This document shows, piece after piece, positions 4,861 to 63,920 of a DNA stretch of 64,000 nucleotides (position 1 is its first letter; each line of letters begins with the position of its first letter). The DNA is taken from positions 43,214,001 through 43,278,000 of the forward strand of contig CM097887.1 of the NCBI GenBank assembly GCA_044892525.1. Reading direction: 5' to 3'. The translations under genes were made by a program, and so were the position numbers. The notes under the pieces are model-generated. The model was not told where the DNA came from. It saw nothing but the letters and a program-made list of their open reading frames with translations, and made no database searches. This stretch comes from Schmidtea polychroa (lineage: Eukaryota).

Positions 4861-5471
4861 CCCCTTTACCGGTAGACCCGAGGATACTCGTCAAGCCGAA
4901 ACCGGCTGATAACCGGTAGACCCGAATATACTCGGCTAAACATAAATACGTCGTTCTAGGTCATTTAGAAACATCAAACCATAATAACCATGCACTCTAC
5001 TACAACTCTAGCCCTGCTGAGGGCAAGAATGTATGGCAGGGCTAAACAAAATAAAAAATTATACAAAAAACATTTCCCATGAAATCTCAGAAAACGTTTC
5101 AAACCTCAATGTAGCTGTATTACCCCATCGCTATAAGCTAAATCATCACAACAACTATTATTATGCTCTTCTAGTGTCTATTTCAGGTCATACAAAAAAA
5201 TTCTTACAAAAGGTTGGAGCAAAAGACACAAAAACTTGCAAAACAATTGTTCTTCTTATTCAGTACCTTGTTATCCACTACTCATTACTTTACAACAATA
5301 CTAAAAACTGCTTTATTTGTTATTAATTAGTTAACTGTTATTCGTTATTAGTTGTTCGTTATTGTTGATAAGGATGTTTGAAAAATAATTAAAAGATTAA
5401 TTTTTTTATAGTCGCAAATAAAGTCGCCAATTAAGGGTCGATTTCAGAAAAGGAAGTTGACGGTAAAGGGG
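4861..5471 (+). mobile_element. piggyBac-type non-autonomous element, family PB-a copy 1 (611 bp)
   Basis: TTAA on both sides; TIR CCCCTTTACCG; near-identical copies at 12414-13024 and 54127-54785. Confidence 0.95.
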
Positions 5472-12413: not shown

Positions 12414-13024
12414 CCCCTTTACCGTCAACTTCCTTTTCTGAAATCGACCCTTAATTGGCGACTTTATTTGCGACTATAAAAAAATTAATCTTTTAATTAT
12501 TTTTCAAACATCCTTATCAACAATAACGAACAACTAATAACGAATAACAGTTAACTAATTAATAACAAATAAAGCAGTTTTTAGTATTGTTGTAAAGTAA
12601 TGAGTAGTGGATAACAAGGTACTGAATAAGAAGAACAATTGTTTTGCAAGTTTTTGTGTCTTTTGCTCCAACCTTTTGTAAGAATTTTTTTGTATGACCT
12701 GAAATAGACACTAGAAGAGCATAATAATAGTTGTTGTGATGATTTAGCTTATAGCGATGGGGTAATACAGCTACATTGAGGTTTGAAACGTTTTCTGAGA
12801 TTTCATGGGAAATGTTTTTTGTATAATTTCTTATTTTGTTTAGCCCTGCCATACATTCTTGCCCTCAGCAGGGCTAGAGTTGTAGTAGAGTGCATGGTTA
12901 TTATGGTTTGATGTTTCTAAATGACCTAGAACGACGTATTTATGTTTAGCCGAGTATATTCGGGTCTACCGGTTATCAGCCGGTTTCGGCTTGACGAGTA
13001 TCCTCGGGTCTACCGGTAAAGGGG
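12414..13024 (-). mobile_element. piggyBac-type non-autonomous element, family PB-a copy 2 (611 bp, inverted)
   Basis: TTAA flanks; TIR CCCCTTTACCG; reverse complement of 4861-5471 with very few differences. Confidence 0.95.
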
Positions 13025-30503: not shown

Positions 30504-33500
30504 TAGGGCTTGCAATACCGGATCAAATTTTCAAAACCGGTATTTCGGTATTTCATTATATTTATACCGGGATCCCGGTATTAATACCGGTATTTAAGAA
30601 AAAACAAAAAAAAGCAAAACTACACCGCAAAAAATAGAAAAAAAAATATTTATAAAGAAAATAAAATATTTAATTCAATAACGAATAATTCGAAACAATA
30701 AACTTTTTTTTAAAGTGCCACAAAAGACAAAAAAAATATAAAATAAAAAAAGAGTAATAATATAATTAATAATATATAAGAATAATAAGTCCTATGTCCT
30801 ATTGTTGTGATTTGCCTTTAAAATATGCCCTCAAAAATGTTAAACTATCAAGAGTTTTGTCGAATTTTTGTGCACAGCAGCCCTGCTGCTGAAAAGGCTC
30901 TTTCGGACTCGACGCTAGTTGGTGGTATGGACATAAGGCAGTCATATACTAGTTGAAGATATTTTCCTCTAATATGTTCTACTTCGAAGTATGCTAGTTC
31001 CTGTTTTATAACTTTATAAAGTACTTTAGAATTCATCGTTTTTGAAATTCCACTTGCAGTATTCATCACATTAACTTTCTTGGAAATTGCCATTTCTAGT
31101 TTTTCTTTCATTGTCATCGAACTTAGAATTTCTGGCTCAGAATCAGCAGATAACTCAGAAACGTCGATGGAAGAGGCTCCTATGTTTTCAATATCGATGA
31201 CATCGATAGTATATAAGCGTTCCAATAAATTTATAATTATTTTTATAATTGTTGCGTTGTTAATTCGATTAAAAATTTCATTTTGGTCGTCATCTGCTGA
31301 TTCAGTAGGATTGTGCAGGTATTGTAGTAGACTCGATAAATCAGTACACCTTTGTTTTATAATTAGCTCTTCTTTGAATTCATTACTTAAAGCAGTATTC
31401 TGTTCTGTCAATTGATTAAACATAAATAGTAAAGCTGCATCTGCGCTAAGAAGAGTAGCATCTTGACGACAACAAGCTTCAACAGTTAATTTGATTGGAA
31501 GAAGAACTGAAATAACTGATGAAATAACTAAAGAAAAATCAATTTCCGAAAATGATATTTCGGCATTTAAATTTAAATCAATCAAAGCCTTTTGTATGCA
31601 GTTCTTTAACTGGACAAAGCGTTCTAGCATGGCAAGTAAGCTATTCCAACGTGTTTTAGAATCTAGAATTAAATTCAGTTCCTTTCCAAATTGTTCTTTA
31701 ACATGTTTCTGTAAAGCTTTATCATTTTTCATTGGCGAACGTCTGAATAGCTTCACAACTTTTCTTATTTTTTTAATCAATGGACCTATCTGTTCATGAA
31801 TAATTAAACAGTCAATTGCATTGTTTTCTTGAAGTATGGATAAACTATTATCATCAAGATCACTATCATTTTCATCACTTGTATGCTGGTTATCATCTTC
31901 GTTACAATTAGAATGTTCATTTTCTAAATTTTGGTGTATCATATTTATATATAAAACCTTAATGACAGCCAATTGAATTCCGTGAACTAAGCAAAGTTGT
32001 TTCCTTGCACAAATCAACTTTCCAACTTTGGTCATGACAGATGCACCATCGGTTGTAATGCACACAATGTGTTTATTTAAAGAAACTTGGAATAATTTAA
32101 GCCTTTCTTCAACGAGGGCAACACACTTTTCTGCAGGCAATGATCCTTGCACACGAACTAATCCTAAGTTCCAGAATTTCTTGATGCCAGCATGAACATT
32201 TATATTTAAATAACGTGGGTTTTTTACCGATGTCCATTCATCAAATGTAAGACTAAATCGTTGTCCCGAAAGAATTTGAGATTCTAACTCTTTAATCATA
32301 TTTGCACGAATTTTTTCACTGTACTGCACAACTAAAATTTTTATAGAGTTTATAGATTTTGGTATATTTTCATACCCTCTGGCAGTTAAACCTTTTCTGA
32401 TATCCACGGAAGTGCAAAATATGTTAAACGACAAACCGTCACATGTCGTCATACGAGCTAAAACTGCAGACAAAGAATTGTTCGTTTCCGAAACGAAAAA
32501 TGTTGTTATTTTCCCGCTAGAAACTTTGTTCACTTTAGAAGTTGATGGTTCTGGCTCAATTTCAATCAGAAGGTTGGAGATCGGAGCATTCCTTTTTTTT
32601 AAATTAATTTGGTGGAGAGTCTTTAGGTGGGTATGCAAACCACTTGTACTACCTCCTTGCGTCTTTATTACTTTGTTACACTTCTTACATTTTGAAATTT
32701 GTCCCTTTTTCTCACGAAGAAAATAGAACCATACGGAATTTTCATCAGCTGATTTTTCCTCAAAAACATAGTTTTCCATGGCTAAAAAAACAGCGTTTTA
32801 ACTTTAAGTAAATTACAGAATTTTTTGAATATTTGTACCCACTTATTAAAACGGCAGAAATCTTGCTATTCTTTATTATTATTTATTATTTTTAATTTTT
32901 AAAAAACCCGCAGCAGTGCGCTATGATAGCGCCGCTATCTATATAAATATATAGAAAATAAAAATTTTACTTATACAATAATTAATTTTCACACTTTTAA
33001 CTTACCTTTACCTATCTGCTATTTATCAATTGAATTAATGATTATTAATTATAATTATGATTTTAAATATTTTTTAACTTTTATATTATACAAACACAAT
33101 TCTCTAAATTTTCAAAAACTTTACAACTGAACTAACTAACTATTCTTTATAAAATAAAAAACATAGCTTCAATATTGAAAATTTGGAAAAATAGAAAACA
33201 ATAATTTCCCATAGAAACGGCTTGCTATGTTGTGTCTTTTTTAGTATTTTTTTAGTATTAGAAAAATTAACGTACAAAAAGGCTCTTTCTTAATGTAAAA
33301 AAAACAAATTACTTCAGTAGGGCCACCTGTACGTAAATTTCAAAATTAGATTTAATCTTTAAATATGACAACACCTAAACATATGCTAATTACTTATAAA
33401 AAATAAAATAGTTAAATAAAAATGATATGAATGTTAACTTACAGCAAAAAAATTTAATACCGGATACCGGTATTAAGTGGTCATTAATACCGGTATTGAA

Positions 33501-49967: not shown

Positions 49968-52055
49968 TATTGGTTGCATTCAAATATTGGTAAATACGTA
50001 TGCTCTATTCAATTTTATGAAATGGGTTTCAAAGATTTCGAATTAATTTTGAATTTTTAGTTATTTCAGTGTTGGTGTTTCAAGAATTTGTTGTTCAAGA
50101 TTCAGTTAGCAGACAAAATCAAATAGTGGCGTGGTTGTGTGAAGTCAGAATAAGCCTTCAAGAACGTCAAGGATGACTACTGCATCAACCGCATACATAC
50201 TCGTGCGGTCTGTGTATATTGTTACTACATGCAGGGACTGAGTACACTAGAAAAATGAGTCCTCTATTTCGAACTGCGCTGTTGGTGCATTCCTAAGGTT
50301 TTAGAACTTCCGATAGAAGTTCATACGTCATATGCGATGATTTGAAATATTAGTGTAAGAGTTACAGTTGATCGGGCTTCTTGGAACCGAAGGATGAGGA
50401 ATTAGCGCAGTTATTTGCAATGGCAAACAAAGCCTATACAAACAACAGAAGACGAACGAAGACGGAAAAATATAAAAATCTAACAGCACACTTATATACA
50501 CTTCTACACTAAATTCATAATGACAGTTTATCTAATTTGAAATCCGAAGCATTCAAGTTGAAGTAAAATATGGGACGCTATCCTGAAGGCTAGGGCACTA
50601 AAATGGAGTTGGCTTGGAGTTTAGCTAGCCATCGTGCCTTAGCTAGTAGTCGATGGGGACAGTTTTTGTTAGATGATTATTTTGCTGTTCCTTGGTAGCA
50701 TTTTATCAGACGTCGGGGTTATAAGCAGGGGTTTCATACTTTTCAGTAGAGGAGCAATCTGCTTGCACTTCTGATTTGACTCAGATATCATGCGATGGAT
50801 CGGGATGACTTCAAGTATGGTAGAGCCTTCGAGTAGGGGCAGATAATTCCATATATGTTCGACAGAGTAGCTGGTGCTGATTGTGAATAAAGTTTTATGG
50901 TGCATAATGTATTTTCCTTGGAGATCTAAAGTTAATTTCCCTTTAAATTTAATGTTGCAAATCCCTGTTTGTTGATTCCATATTTTACTTAACCCTAGAA
51001 TTTTATTTAGGAGATTAATACCAATAAATTAGAATTAATTTAATTTATTTTAGCCTTCTTTCATAATTTGTTAATTACGTTACGAAAAAAGCTTTCTGTT
51101 ATATTTTATGTTCGGATCGCTTAAACTGATTTTTTACTGGAACGATGATGATTTAATCCCCAAATTGATGGTTATGACATTTGTTATGAGATTTTCGATT
51201 TATTTCATTTAGATTTAGAATAATATTCTCGTTTATTAATAGTTCAGATATTTGTTTTCCCATTTTTTAGTTTCCTCGACCAGCAATAGATTTGAAAAAG
51301 CACTCAACAAAGGTAACGTGAATCTCTCAAACCTTCATGATACTTAATAGGCTATTAGTGTTAAATTCTATGAATAGACACTAATTATTGATCTGGTCTC
51401 GTTAGTTACTGATATCAGATATCTGTTGGCGGGAAAATAAGATATACGATTATCATGGTGTCAATTTGAGAAAAGTTTGATCCTATTTCTCGACGATATC
51501 GATCCAGGCTTTGGGCCTTCAAATCTTTTCGCTATCCTGACATCTTTAGTGCCTATTAGTCATCGAGACATTCTGATTTTTCGATATTATATTAAATCTG
51601 CGCGATTCATTAATTTATTCTAGACCCGAATCAGAACACCTGCCACACTCATGACACACCTATTCCGGAGGCTATCCTGAATCAACGCCCGCTGCCTACC
51701 ACTTCGGGTAGTATAAATCTGCTACTAAGGCCTCAGGTGTAATCTCGTCCATGCTTGCACTTCCCTGATTTCGAACATGAAATCTAATTGACCATTTAGG
51801 TGTTAATCAGTGAACTTATCTGTCAGACCAGAGTGTGATAGGGCTTGTTCCACTCTACTATCATCCGGCAGGACACCTCTTGATTTGTCTATCTTTACAC
51901 TAGTTTTGACCTGTTAAGGTAACCCTCAAAGTAAGCATATGCTGGTCACCAAATTAGTATGCTGAAATGTTTGGGCTGTCTCGAAAAATGCATATCGAAA
52001 TCATATAACAATATAAATGAAATAAGCTACTATGTTACATTAAAGGTTTTATTAA

Positions 52056-52295
52056 CCCTCTCCGTGTAAAAAATAATGCTGATATTTATAGTGACCCGTT
52101 CTATTCCCACAAAAACAGTTACAAAATGTGCCTTCAGCTTCATCCCGATGGATTCAAAGCTGGAAAAGGGACACATCTTTCTGTTTTCTTTTTCATAATG
52201 CGCGGTGAAAACGATGTACTTTTGCAATGGCCTATGAAACTTGAAGTGACATCTTGCTTTAATGTCGAATATATTCGACAAATATACGGAGAGGG
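52056..52295. mobile_element. piggyBac-type TTAA element (240 bp) carrying a host TRAF fragment
   Basis: TTAA-CCCTCTCCGT...ACGGAGAGGG-TTAA (14-bp perfect inversion including TTAA). Confidence 0.9.
52081..52260 (+). pseudogene. TRAF-family MATH/TRAF-C domain coding fragment
   Basis: Open frame DIYSDPFYSHKNSYKMCLQLHPDGFKAGKGTHLSVFFFIMRGENDVLLQWPMKLEVTSCF matches the TRAF signature S.PFY....YKMC....P.G...GKGTHLS.F...M.G..D.LL.WP....VT. Not in the supplied ORF track. Confidence 0.9.
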
Positions 52296-52788
52296 TTAAT
52301 ATAAAAATGAAACTTTACAATTATAAAATGGGAACAATGACATAATTATTCATATACTGATTGCATAATATAATATTAAAAAAAATTAACAATCAGTAAT
52401 TACCGTTAAGTTGTCAAACAAAAATAATGAACAGTTTCAGTAGAATCGAAAAAGGTTCAATTTCAAAATATAAGTGTTTTCAGTTCGTTCCATCTGTCAA
52501 ATCGAGGCCTTAATAAATTGACAGTAAGTTACTGCCACCAATATTTTTAGCCGAGAGTTTTCTAATCGCCATCTTCCTTTTCGGCATTTTCTATGTCTTT
52601 CTAATTATTTTGGCGTTTTGCGATGCTATTTAAAAATGTTTCATGTGCTACTGGTTGTCGTTTCTTTATTTCAGGTAGTTCTGTTTTATTTTTAATTATT
52701 TTTTAATTAAATTTTCTTGTTTGGTTGATGCTGATTACTTTTAATTTAGTAACATTTTGGGTTTTATGCTATGTAGGTCTGATTTCGG

Positions 52789-53212: not shown

Positions 53213-53520
53213 GATTTCGGGAACCTCTTCATTATATTTCCAGGTCACTTACTCTTTTTTTATTTAACAACTCAACGCTTAGAACAACATCAGTGAAATC
53301 AGCTGTTTTATCTATTTATTTAAGAATATAAAAATTAAATTCAGTCAATTTTTTAATAAATACTATGTCAATTGAAAGGAAATCAGAGTTGTGTTGTGCC
53401 TAATAAAAATGTTACCTTATAAAAATACCAAAATAATAATTATTTTTTAAAATATGTATAAAAATAAATCAAAAAATAAAAAGTACTACATTAAAACATT
53501 AATATTCTCCTATAAATCCT

Positions 53521-55269
53521 TTAATTCAAATTATTATTATTTTCTCCACTTCGTCTTAAACTTGGAAGACTGAGTCCATGTATGGTAGTGCTGCTTCTCG
53601 ATATGTTGGCCATTTTTATCATATAATTATATCTAAACTCTCCTAATTGATGAATTTCTTCGCTGGAGAGGTTAGAAATTTCGGGGGTATAATCATTTAT
53701 TAATAAATTAGAATTGGGATTTAGACCAGAATAACCTAAAAACAAACTGACAGGAGCGTCATTAATAGCTCCATGAAATTTAATGTTATATTCATAAATC
53801 ATTCTTTTTAAGATTATAACCCAACATTCCGTATCTCTTTCTTACATAACAGACAAAAGCATTCTTTTTTGAGTAAAGTTAAAACGCTCAACTTGAACCT
53901 GTGATTCAGGGTGATTTGGGGCTCCGAATATTTGTCTAACGTTAAAGCTATTACAAAAAAATGAAATAACTCTGTTTTTGAATTCAGAACCATTATCTGT
54001 GTGTATTTCATTCGGGATAAATCCAGACAAAAATAAATCTTCTAAATGTATAAAGACTTCCAAAGCGGTCTTTGAAGCACAAGGATAAGCCAATGCGAAC
54101 TTAGTAGCACAATCTATCACCGTTAACCCCTTTACCGTCAACTTTCTTTTCTGAAATCGACCCTTAATTGGCGACTTTATTTGCGACTATAAAAAAATAA
54201 TCTATTAATTATTTTTCAAACATCTTTATCAACATTAACGAACAACTAATAACGAATAACCATTAACTAATTAATAACAAATAAAGCAGTTTTTAGTATT
54301 GTTGTAAAGTAATGAGTAGTGGATAACAAGGTACTGAATAAGAAGAACAATTGTTTTGCAAGTTTTTGTATCTTTTGCTCCAACCTTTTGTAAGAATTTT
54401 TTTGTATGACCTGAAATAGACACTAGAAGAGCATAATAATAGTTGTTGTGATGATTTAGCTTATAGCGATGGGGTAATACAGCCTGATTGAGGTTTGAAA
54501 CGTTTTCTGAGATTTCATGGGAAATGTTTTTTGTATAATTTTTTATTTTGTTTAGCCCTGCCATACATTCTTGCCCTCAGCAGGGCTAGAGTTGTAGTAG
54601 AGTGCATGTTATTATGGTTTGATGTTTCTAAATGACCTAGAACGACGTATTCACGTTTAGCCGAGGATACTCGGGTCTACCGTGCTGCAGTACGCTTTCA
54701 AATATATAAAGCGAGTTAACTCGGGTCTACCGGTTATCAGCCGGTTTCGGCTTGACGAGTATCCCCGGGTCTACCGGTAAAGGGGTTAAAATGTACTTAA
54801 ATCCGTCGTTTTGGGTTTCGAAATTCAACATGTAAGTTATGTCCATCTGAAAACGATCCATTTTATTTATTATTATAATTGGTGTAATGGATGATGAGGT
54901 AGTTTCTACTGTTCTTCTGGAACAGATACAACATATATCAAGCACAAGTTTTACGTCTTCTTACTTAATATTATAATATCTGCATTGTAATTCTTTATAA
55001 ATAGCCTCTAGACACCTATGCGAAGCTAAATGGACCTCTTCAACGCATAACATTTTCTTTGGATCATTGTAATCTTTAATATATTCTAACAAAATATTAT
55101 TTTCCATTTGAATAAAAATTATGTTATTTAATATCTTCATTCTAGTTGCTTTTTTAAAAAATAAATTTCGTTGTGATTTTGTATCGAAATCAGGTAAATT
55201 TCCGTTAACCATAAAATTTACATAAGAGTTGTATTCTGCTTCCGTATTTATTTGAATTCTTGCAGGCAT
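53521..55269 (-). pseudogene. Integrase-like transposase (HHCC zinc finger + D,D35E), ~361 aa, disrupted by two in-frame stops and a piggyBac MITE
   Basis: ORFs 54961..55269, 54727..54945, 53842..54141 and 53521..53802 join in one frame once the MITE and one TTAA are removed: HLASH...CCIC; RFQMDIT; KYIL|TVIDCATKF; HTDNGSEF-(35)-VERFN; YN..FH.AI...P..LFLG. Confidence 0.9.
54127..54785 (-). mobile_element. piggyBac-type non-autonomous element, family PB-a copy 3 (659 bp)
   Basis: TTAA flanks; TIR CCCCTTTACCG; extra ~50 bp between TCGGGTCTACC direct repeats. Confidence 0.95.
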
Positions 55270-55491
55270 TAGAATTATAAAAAATATATTATATCTTTAA
55301 AATCAATTTATAATTTATATTAAAAAATTATAATTATTTTGGTATTTTTATTAGGCAACATTTTTATTAGGCACCACTAAAGAAATCAGAGTTGAAAATT
55401 AAAAAAAGTTCTTATAGTATGAAAATTAAAAGAATTTAACTACATTCAAAAAGAGTATATTTTGTTTGAAGAACGACATAATAAAAATATA

Positions 55492-55728
55492 CTCCCTCTG
55501 TCCAAAAATGATAGTCCAGTTTGACTTTAAATCGTAATTTCTTTTATACGTAACAGTGATACTTAAAATGCAGTTTTGTTATTTGTTCAATCAATAAAAT
55601 AAAATTATTTAATGTGCTTTCACTGTAAAAGGTTTTAGAAAACCGTACAATTTTTTTATATTCTCTAATGACAATCATTTTGGGAAAAAGGCTAAAATGC
55701 AACTGGACTATCATTTTTGGACAGGGAG
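55492..55728. mobile_element. Tc1/mariner MITE with Stowaway-like termini (237 bp)
   Basis: TA TSD; ~30-bp TIR CTCCCT(C)TGTCCAAAAATGATAGTCCAGTT. Confidence 0.88.
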
Positions 55729-56553
55729 TATGTATTAGCTACTAATTGAATTTAAAACGGGCTATTTAAACGTTTAAATGAAACTTAGGGTTTCACTTTT
55801 TAATGTGATAAAGACAAGAAAACATTTTGTGTTCTCCAAGAAATGGATCGAGTATGAAGATATTTTTGATTTTCATTTAAATTTGAAATATCTCCCATTT
55901 ATGAAATATAGTTTATCCGGTTTTCTATAGTTAAGTTTAACTTAATAATTTGAATATTTGCTTAATAATCATTGTGAAATAACTAGTTTTAATATTTTGC
56001 TTGCTTTCCATGTGTGGGTTTGTGGCTGCTGGCATAATTTCATCTCCTTGACAATTGACATTCTATAATTACCTGATCGTCACTTGATCGCTTGAATTTC
56101 AACGATCACAACCTCAATCAAAACACGATTTCGACAAGTAACGTTGGTTTTGAGTAGTCTGGATAAAAGTTCAGGATTCCTCTGGTTCAGTATGTCGATA
56201 CAAGGCACTTTACTGTTATCCATTAAGGTTGCCCCTCATAATCATCACACTTTTTCAAAACTCTGTAAAATTTAAAGCACTAATCATTCAAAAATCTAGT
56301 TTGATTGTGGATAATAAGACGAAGATTTAGTTTACTTAATTTTTTAAAAATTTACATAGTTTTTTTCTAATTGGGATATATCATAGTCCCTTACTGTGAA
56401 TGAAATAGTTCCTTCTTCATTTATTACTTTTACACTATTAATTTTGATCGAATTCTATTGTAATATTGAAAAGGCTTACAATTGGAAAAATTTTCAAGAT
56501 GCATTGCTAGAATAATTTATACTTCTGTACAAGAATGGAAAATACCGTTAGAT

Positions 56554-60812: not shown

Positions 60813-62024
60813 CTATAATCTTTTTCTAATAAATATTTTAATTAATATTAAAATATATTATAATTTAATTATCCATTGCTAAGAAATTTCTCATCTTGCT
60901 AAGTTTCATCGGCTGTTTTACATTATTTTATTGAGTTTTTGGAAATTTTTTTAAAAAATTATTTAATATTTATTATTAAAAATAATTATTTTACTTAATT
61001 TCTTAATTGCATTCTAAATTGGTAATTCTCGCTCATAAACGCAATCTCAAATTACGGTTCAAATGTACAAATCTGTTATTATTATTATTGGGACAAAATC
61101 CTGATGGAACGATTTAATAGTTAGTTCAGACCCGGCCACAGATATAAGCGCTCTAAGCAGCGTGTCACAACCGATATCAGATTCACGGGAAGTTCATAAA
61201 TAATCCCATTGTAATATGATTTCAATTCTCGCTGACTTTCTTTTACCCTGATACATATGGTTTTACACCGTTTGTACGAATATACAATGCTTCACTTTCA
61301 ATAGGGATGCTACCCATTACCCACGCCATCTATTAATAATGACAATATTGTTATGTGTATGCTATTTTTATGCGACAATTACGTGACATTATTGTAAATT
61401 TGTCATCCATGGTACTCATACCGTATGTATGATCAAATCCTAAATCCATAATATTGTTAGGAGAATATTGTTTACCATATAATAACGGAGACCCTAAATA
61501 CATGTAGTTCCTAGATCATGGTCTAAAAGGCCTACTAGTTAATCCGGCACTGATCGAAACCATCATATCATGTAATCAACACATAGATTTTAAGGGTGAC
61601 CCAACAAAACAGTCGAAGACAGATTCGCCCCAACAAATTATTTTCTTAAAATCAATATTCACAATGCCTGCTGCTTTGTTCGACTTTCTCATCCAAATTC
61701 ACTAATCAAAATTTTGATGGGCTGTTTTCTTTTAGCTTATTTATCGGTTCTTATTTAATTGAGGTGTTTTATCAGGATTGTTTATTCTTGGACAATTTTG
61801 TCGGGTGTAGTCTTCAGAAACCACTGGCCTGGGCAATAAAATTACAAATAAAAGATAAAAACTTTCTAGTTTTTCTAATTTTGTTATATAGCTTAAATTT
61901 AAACGTAAAAAAGAAAAATTTTGAATACGTAATATTATTCAAGAGAAACATAGATATTAATAAAAGAAAGTGCAAGATATTTATAAATATTTGTGGAAAA
62001 TTGAATATCAAAAAATAAAGTTTT

Positions 62025-63920
62025 TTTTTGTTGCGTGTTTCTAATTTTACTAACACATCTTCTACGTCAAATTTCCTCCTTGTTTGTTCTTCTTGTTCTT
62101 CCTTTACCTGTTTTTCTTTTGACCCGTACCATTTCTCCCTACTAATCTTTTTTCCAAAAACTATCTCTGCCGGGCTTATTCCGGTCGTTTTTTGTTTGGT
62201 TGCATTTAATGTAAATTCGACTTCTGGTAGTATCTCTGCCCAATCCGTCTTCCTTCTGTCTCGTAAAGTAGCATTTATCAGCTCTCGTATTGTCCTGAAT
62301 TGCCTTTCTATCTGTCCATTTGTTTGGTGATGGTATGGACTCGAAAAACATAACTTAATATCAAGTTTTCTTGTGAATTCTCTCAACATTCCTGATTCCA
62401 ACGCCTTCCCACAATCAACTCTTATCTCTTTTGGGCACCCATATCTTAAAATCCATTTTTCTAAAATCCTTTTCTTTATTGTTTCTTCGTCTTGCCTTGT
62501 TATAGCTGCCAGGACTTGATACTTACTATACTGGTCTATTATACCCAATATATACTTCTTACGTCGTTTTGTTTCTTGCATTGGCCCACATATATCCACG
62601 AATATAATTTCGAACATTTCGGTTGATTCTAGTTTTTTTTACTGGTTCCTTCGTTGTAATTGTTATAGCCTTGGTTTTTTGACAAGTCTCACAACTTCGA
62701 ATACTTTCCTGAATCTGACTCCACAGGTTTTTCCCAATATATCTATCTTTCATATAATCAGCTATCTTCTCGACTCCAGCATGACATAATAGCCTTTATG
62801 GTTTCTTGTATCTCGTTTTCAGGTATCATCGTTTTCTTTCGTAATTTTTCTTCCAAATTTATTCGTTGATTAGTGCTTCGACCTTCTCTGATCGAGTCTA
62901 GTAATCTAGATTTTATCTTTCCTTTCTTAGCTTTTTTGTGAGCCATTTGACATTGAACACACGTTTCACATTTAGTTCTGGACACCATGTCTGCATTTTG
63001 GTGATTAACACCTTTTCTATATTCAACTATTATATCCAAACTGCTCAAATAATTGATCCAGGTTTGGAATTGTGAAGTAATTGGCTTCTTGGTTGTCATC
63101 ATAGAAGTGATCGCCTTGTGGTCTGTCCTTAGCGTGAATCTTCTTCCGTAGAGATAGTGCTTAAAATAAATACAAAAATAGTATACCGCCAATAGTTCCT
63201 TCCTTGTAATGCAATATCATTTTTCATGGTTCGTCATCGAGTGTGATCCATAAGCAATTACTCTCTCCTTTCCATCTTTATCTCTTTGCGAAAGCACTGC
63301 TCCAATGGTATCAAAACTGGCATCAGTATCTAAAATGAACTCCTTTCTCAGATCCGGAGAGCATAGTGTTGGTGCCGTTGTGAGTGCTAACTTCATTCCC
63401 TCGAATACGTTATTCGTTCCTTCAGTCCATTCCAGTTTTTTGTTACTCAGACCGCTACATAATTGTTCTAACATCCTTGCTTTCATTGCATACTCACTGA
63501 TGAATCTTCTATAATAATTGCAAATTCCTAGAAAGCTTCGAAGTTTCTTTATGCAATTTGGCTTACCAAAGTTTTGCATAGCCTGAATCTTAGAAGAATC
63601 GGTTTTTACTCCTTCTTTACTGATTATGTGTCCTAAGAATCTGATTTCTTTCTTTATTATTTGACACTTTTCTGGGTTAATCTTTAGTCCTGCTTCATCG
63701 ATCGCTTTTAATACTACACTGAGTATTGTATGATGTTTTTCTTTACTATTCGAATAAATCAGAATGTCATCCACATAGACCATTGCCTATTACCTTTGTC
63801 ATCATTTCCTGGAACGTACCTGGTGCTGCAGCAATTCCGAACGGCATGAAACAGTATTGCCCTTTCTTTGTTGAGAATGCTGTTTTCTCTTGCGATTCTT
63901 CGTCTAACTGCACTAACTAT
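62025..63920 (-). mobile_element. Decayed Ty3/Gypsy pol (RT-RNaseH-integrase)
   Basis: KTAFST..GQY..MPFG; VYVDDILIYS; LDTDASFDTIGAVLSQ; RTDHKA; H...H...CETC; FVDICGP...VDCGK...NGQIERQFR. The domain order RT-RH-IN indicates Gypsy. Stops and frameshifts present; no LTR recognised. Confidence 0.95.

Follow-up and report, generated by a model that had tools for sequence, protein, structure and literature searches.

Target site duplications (TSDs) left by integrases with a retroviral-type HHCC zinc finger are held to be fixed at 4–6 bp by the geometry of the intasome (PMC10045372), and the lengths given in the same source are 4 bp for Ginger1, 4–5 bp for Ginger2, 6 bp for Polinton and 3–6 bp for LTR elements. 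Ginger2/TDD elements combine terminal inverted repeats (TIRs) of ~50–90 bp and TGT...ACA ends with one integrase-type gene, which has an H2C2 finger and a DDE core and is without the GPY/F motif; they leave a TSD of 4 bp (5 bp for TDD), prefer RTATAY targets, and are 2.7–6.7 kb when full-length (Table 2) (PMC2836005; PMC3575427). Longer duplications are known from transposases of other anatomy. The IS481EU/Banshee elements, reported only from parabasalids, have TGT...ACA ends, short TIRs and one DDE gene without HHCC, and their TSDs fall into 4-, 15- (15/16) and 25-bp classes (PMC10045372), while the prokaryotic IS1202 family, in which an N-terminal HTH replaces the HHCC, has target repeats of 16–17 bp in its ISTde1 subgroup and of 5–6 or 27–28 bp in the others (bioRxiv 10.1101/2022.12.17.520857). 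A step of ~10 bp in TSD length is known in IS481EU, IS481 and IS1202 (PMC10045372; bioRxiv 2022.12.17.520857), and Kojima and Bao found no clue to the origin of the long TSDs (PMC10045372).

The locus described here lies in a 64,000-nt stretch of DNA (the window), in which an integrase-type TIR element, one copy of what we call family A, spans positions 53392–55378. The copy is a dead one, from a compact family of TIR DNA transposons, and has the following features.

53343–53391, plus strand: left part of a short, high-copy host repeat that runs on to ~55416 (from read depth, with loose ends at 53343 and at 55416)
53376–53391, plus strand: left 16-bp copy of the TSD, 15/16 identical to 55379–55394, adjoining the element end
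53392–53449, plus strand: TIR on the 3' side of the gene, with a TGT terminus; 58-bp core, with weaker similarity on to 53481
53521–54126, minus strand: C-terminal half of the transposase gene, with the second D (53995–53997), the E (53887–53889) and a predicted helical tail without an SH3-type domain
54123–54789, no strand assigned: nested insert with its TTAA pair (54123–54126 and 54786–54789); 659 bp, non-coding, at 54127–54785, CCCC...GGGG
54790–55269, minus strand: N-terminal half of the transposase gene, with the ATG (55267–55269), an N-terminal extension, the HHCC (55032–54922) and the first D (54841–54843)
55321–55378, minus strand: TIR on the 5' side of the gene, its terminal base unlike that of most copies
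55379–55394, plus strand: right 16-bp copy of the TSD, one mismatch relative to the left copy, adjoining the element end

A first-pass annotation of this DNA had described TIRs of ~58 bp around a lone HHCC and D,D35E gene, without LTR, gag or reverse transcriptase (RT), and that description is borne out. The TIR arms are identical at 52/58 positions (70/89 if extended), and the window copy ends in ...ACT on the right where the majority of the other family A copies have ACA. The gene runs on the minus strand from 55269 to 53521 and gives 361 residues when read through its breaks, in which the HHCC, D, D and E can be read with 35 residues separating the E from the second D, and it matches Pfam rve at an E value of 5.9e-12. 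An uninterrupted family A copy (L002) is complete at 1309 bp from TIR to TIR with this one gene, and no gag, RT or LTR was found in the element; as PolB, ATPase and capsid genes are absent as well, a remnant of a Polinton/Maverick or of an LTR retrotransposon is rejected. What the earlier description did not include is that the gene in the window is broken three times, by TAA stops at 54961–54963 and 53842–53844 and by the 659-bp insert, which we take to be piggyBac-like with its CCCC...GGGG ends and TTAA duplication as hallmarks. A contig joint from 54121 to 54785, skipping exactly these 659 bp, is present in 4/4 sequencing runs. The window copy measures 1324 bp without the insert, which as foreign DNA makes up one third of the ~2 kb. 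The same non-coding TTAA element occurs in three copies in the window (54127–54785, 4861–5471 and 12414–13024) that are ~97% identical. Among the family A copies examined there is no intact gene, the longest stop-free transposase stretch being 199 aa.

The surrounding host repeat allows the duplication at this locus to be followed in its own right. The 16-mer is present once in 14 distinct uninterrupted matches of the host repeat, and the three matches that span a query with two copies require gaps of 10–16 nt. Since the repeat carries a single 16-mer when uninterrupted, the second was made at insertion. The read data hold no clean empty allele of the window copy, and the joints found there are those of other host-repeat copies.

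To place the flanking repeats, which had been noted at first pass as matching at 15/16 positions, within the family as a whole, a 19-nt exact end motif was searched genome-wide (781 Mb) and gave 129 occurrences, with 0 for a reversed-pattern control. Loci L001–L160 and L265–L324 were examined (the second end was absent in 23/60 of those fetched last), and removal of duplicates left 71 distinct two-ended family A loci. With a 15/16-bp TSD called where at least 12/15 or at least 13/16 positions match, 50 of the 71 loci carry one (36 of 15 bp and 14 of 16 bp, 27 of the 50 being perfect), compared with 6/4970 mismatched flank pairs in the control. Mismatches within the TSD pairs amount to 33/764 positions, and two of the 50 loci lie within AAT microsatellites and are little informative. 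Outside this class are 21 loci, six with repeats of 13, 14, 14, 14, 17 and 18 bp, one with 9 bp, and 14 with nothing clear, as would be expected of old copies (median pairwise identity 89%). The long TSD is therefore confirmed as a family-wide trait. A check of other copies for TSDs of 4–6 bp had also been proposed, and it gives 0/71 loci with an exact 5- or 6-bp TSD and no class at 4–6 or ~25 bp, the sole exact 4- and 25-bp matches belonging to one microsatellite. The target sequences are mutually unrelated, with AT-richness as their sole common feature and no target motif. Most family A copies are deletion derivatives of 230–800 bp. One locus (L266, G000:C1:82056342-82057142) has two ends of the same type, and each flank is the reverse complement of the other, which makes it an inverted duplication without TSD.

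LINE insertions typically have long TSDs, which counts in favor of LINE-type target-primed reverse transcription of the copies, and a local repair duplication has also to be considered. Both are at odds with the fixed TGT...ACA on both sides, the lack of tails, and two discrete lengths over 50 loci and three families; we give them practically no weight, and the census refutes them as the origin of the TSD.

Two related families in the same genome, B and C (~45–57% protein identity, TGT ends that differ from those of family A), also have TSDs of the 15/16-bp class, in 3/4 and 7/16 of their two-ended loci, respectively. At one place (L106/L143, G000:C3:118.90 Mb) one copy of C and one of B, separated by ~500 bp, are each flanked by a 15-bp TSD of their own. 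Family D (L076, L077, L092, L095 and L098), a TIR element of 1.6 kb with TGT ends, encodes an HHCC integrase that has a C-terminal domain and is ~26% identical over the alignment, and its TSD is exactly 5 bp in 5/5 copies. These short-TSD copies bear on the proposal that an ordinary 5-bp stagger is lengthened by 10–11 bases by the host, through nucleosome-paced repair or strand-displacement fill-in. One extra helical turn would be equally predicted in that case, but family D and the TA-targeting Ginger2 elements share the genome and its host repair, and repair would be expected to vary in length, yet the peak at 15–16 bp is sharp. We consider such lengthening highly improbable.

It is instead quite probable, in our judgment, that family A encodes an HHCC and DDE integrase that itself leaves the 15- and 16-bp TSDs, likely by joining strands about one helical turn wider than its 5-bp relatives do. 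The integrase would bind the TGT ends and excise the element in a cut-and-paste manner, and a concerted transfer of both ends to opposite strands with a 15–16-nt stagger would then leave gaps that are filled by host repair, giving the TSD. A spacing of 5 + 10.5 = 15.5 bases would fit the mixture of 15 and 16 bp and would place both cuts on one face of the helix. As a speculative hypothesis, the geometry of the complex may have changed when a short helical tail took the place of the SH3-type C-terminal domain. With a profile built from the C-terminal tails of 37 neighboring integrases, family D is matched at E 9e-28 and two tails of Gypsy at E 6e-6 and 3e-5, but no row among the 8 of the long-TSD clade scores better than E 2. 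The members of this clade all lack the C-terminal domain that the 5-bp group has. We read the tail in this profile as probably SH3-type, from that match and from one Pfam MLVIN_C match in a Gypsy row. A SCAND3-type Ginger2 element with short TSDs is likewise missed by the profile, so a miss alone is no predictor of a long TSD.

The anatomy of the protein is best seen in its intact relatives, which are matched by Pfam Integrase_H2C2 (PF17921) and PF00665, with PF17921 above the cut-off in P0001, P0156, P0157 and P0159 and just below it in P0158. The predicted structure of P0157 (pLDDT 91.6; an earlier fold from 9 sequences, with a pLDDT of 58, was set aside) is laid out as an N-terminal extension, a zinc finger, the integrase core and a short helical tail. 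Its best structural matches are foamy-virus intasome chains, namely prototype foamy virus (PFV) integrase (PDB 3oy9, 6rny), with a Z of ~22 for the core (21.9, rmsd 1.8, 165 aligned) at ~20% identity. The alignment reaches the N-terminal region at high rmsd and includes nothing beyond model residue ~300. PFV integrase differs in that retroviral TSDs are 4–6 bp, and the P0157 model differs in ending with the short helical tail.

In a profile search against 1.84 billion representatives the top match was an intact 360-aa protein (E 2e-109), KAG0442557.1, named 'Pro-Pol polyprotein' and annotated to the microsporidian Dictyocoela muelleri on a 24.8-kb contig, a record that could be host contamination. 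Four further relatives of 351–363 aa, which are unnamed, lie on contigs of 1.2–1.4 kb, which is the size of a whole element, and they are 44–52% identical to the window copy. The term 'animal lineage' used at first pass does not reach far enough, since annotation assigns the best named relative to the microsporidia. Sharing of transposons between microsporidia and their hosts has been reported for other superfamilies (PMC4202319), and this clade may add a case with a flatworm-type host. Enteropsectra breve proteins are found among the neighboring HHCC integrases. From the metagenome contigs, 80/113 loci were kept, with one true clade member (L161, Ga0114960_10189799), which is partial at 1079 bp without an element end and 49% identical; the others are weak (22–34% identity), and those translated are IS481-type. 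Searching for homologs by words, with a 132-aa fragment as the query, was fruitless where the profile search succeeded; in the ESM Atlas nothing beyond rve clusters of a generic kind turned up, and none of 27 pattern matches in viral contigs is a relative. High-copy 376-aa matches are, among the matches listed, Polinton integrases. By eye, the Polinton integrase of this genome matches Polinton-1_SM, from which the host would seem to be a planarian-type flatworm. The genome holds a high-copy Polinton family (L061–L065, L075 and L078) with ATPase, integrase and capsid-type ORFs, two members of which (L075 and L078) have an additional short ORF. TSDs were read in the families of this genome, and the outside clade members are known from protein or contig alone.

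Families A–C, KAG0442557.1 and the unnamed 351–363-aa proteins form one clade in every tree, with a support of 99 in the 172-row FastTree tree (11/183 rows were left out for short coverage), 100 in the 70-row mixture-model tree and 100/99 with 37 rows. The clade is separate from the Polinton and Gypsy rows of this genome. SCAND3-type Ginger2 rows form a clade of their own (100/99) apart from it in all trees, the SCAND3/KRBA2-type elements of this genome are located in TA runs, and a union of the two is nearly rejected (AU p 0.062); the 'KRBA2/SCAND3-like' of the first-pass annotation is unsupported as worded. Family D falls together with proteins of Enteropsectra breve and with unnamed ones, again apart from SCAND3-type Ginger2, and joining its group directly to the long-TSD clade gives p 0.017. 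The trees yield a firm clade and not its deep position, where unions with three IS481-type rows (p 0.46 in the careful 37-row analysis) and with Gypsy rows (p 0.18) are unrejected, on a backbone without resolution and with rows that do not include IS481EU, TDD/TDD-4 or Repbase Ginger2 sequences.

The IS481 union is also the place to weigh whether the TSD was inherited, the clade being an early branch in which the 15-bp mode seen in some IS481/IS481EU transposases was retained and the HHCC finger was gained or kept. Besides the value above, the same union reached p 0.80 on a quick tree that missed its own optimum, a union with the single IS481-type row L212 has p 0.25, and IS481EU shares both TGT...ACA and the 15/16-bp TSD (PMC10045372). 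However, in the free trees the IS rows stay on a branch of their own (IS481EU itself being outside the rows), the NCBIfam IS481 scores of the clade (84–114 bits, cut-off 224) are equaled by those of neighboring integrases (84–115), and the short and ~25-bp classes are absent. The ISNCY profile matches the clade only at E 0.003. Anatomy speaks more clearly than the tree, as the clade has the H2C2 finger and HHCC/H2C2 is missing from IS481EU, IS481 and IS1202, as it is from IS3EU and Polinton (PMC10045372). Inheritance of the long TSD seems to us unlikely.

Compared with the described systems, family A has the TIRs, TGT...ACA ends, single gene, H2C2 finger and GPY/F-free DDE core of Ginger2/TDD, and Repbase Ginger2 cores are similar by eye in the motif before the catalytic E (PMC10045372 Data S3), but its TSD is 15–16 bp instead of 4 or 5, it is without a target motif, and its length is 1.3 kb. 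With IS481EU it has in common the ends, short TIRs, the single DDE gene and the long TSD; unlike IS481EU, the clade has the HHCC, is found in an animal genome and shows a single TSD class, and membership is ruled out by the HHCC at 55032–54922. The clade works like Ginger2/TDD with the wrong TSD for that group, and has the TSD of IS481EU together with the finger that IS481EU lacks. Ginger1 is likewise an integrase-related TIR transposon, with a CCGG/CCGT 4-bp TSD, GPY/F and OTU/Ulp1 tails (PMC2836005), and family A has none of these features. IS3EU/GingerRoot, of the same general kind, has a 6-bp TSD, mostly TA ends and no HHCC (PMC6839031; PMC10045372), and is excluded by 0/71 exact 6-bp TSDs, TGT ends and the presence of HHCC.

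The suggestion that the element is possibly unclassified agrees with the papers searched, a scope that has most subscription journals and Repbase Reports outside it and within which no HHCC-integrase transposon with a 15–16-bp TSD is described; passages from PMC3845634, PMC12859917, PMC13343696, PMC4455052, PMC6839031 and PMC4202319 contain no such family. An unclassified Repbase/Dfam entry for family A may exist. We tentatively propose, at a little under even confidence, that the clade is an undescribed superfamily-level lineage common to microsporidia and an animal, the first retroviral-type HHCC integrase with a 15–16-bp stagger and the smallest at 1.3 kb, which would have lost its C-terminal domain and reached its stagger independently of IS481EU and IS1202. 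A long-TSD clade with a retroviral-type zinc finger and core breaks the 4–6-bp rule, and as TSD length is a main classifier of DNA transposons, annotation based on it would miss or mislabel such elements. The clade also offers small intact enzymes that are near to intasomes of solved structure, together with a 5-bp comparator and a candidate structural difference. If the proposal is true, these enzymes, and a relative with 5-bp TSDs that shares the genome, would make it directly testable how one fold sets TSDs that differ by a helical turn.

Several other features of the window were seen in passing. Directly to the right of the element is a ~250-bp MITE with 44-bp inverted arms (55486–55736), present in very high copy as judged by read depth, and ~1.1 kb to the left is a fragment of a TRAF-type MATH domain (52021–52299, Pfam E 2.5e-18). 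Farther away, a 649-aa open frame at 30848–32797 resembles a hAT-type transposase by eye, and at 61650–63786 a Gypsy pol region, also recognized by eye, is present in pieces.
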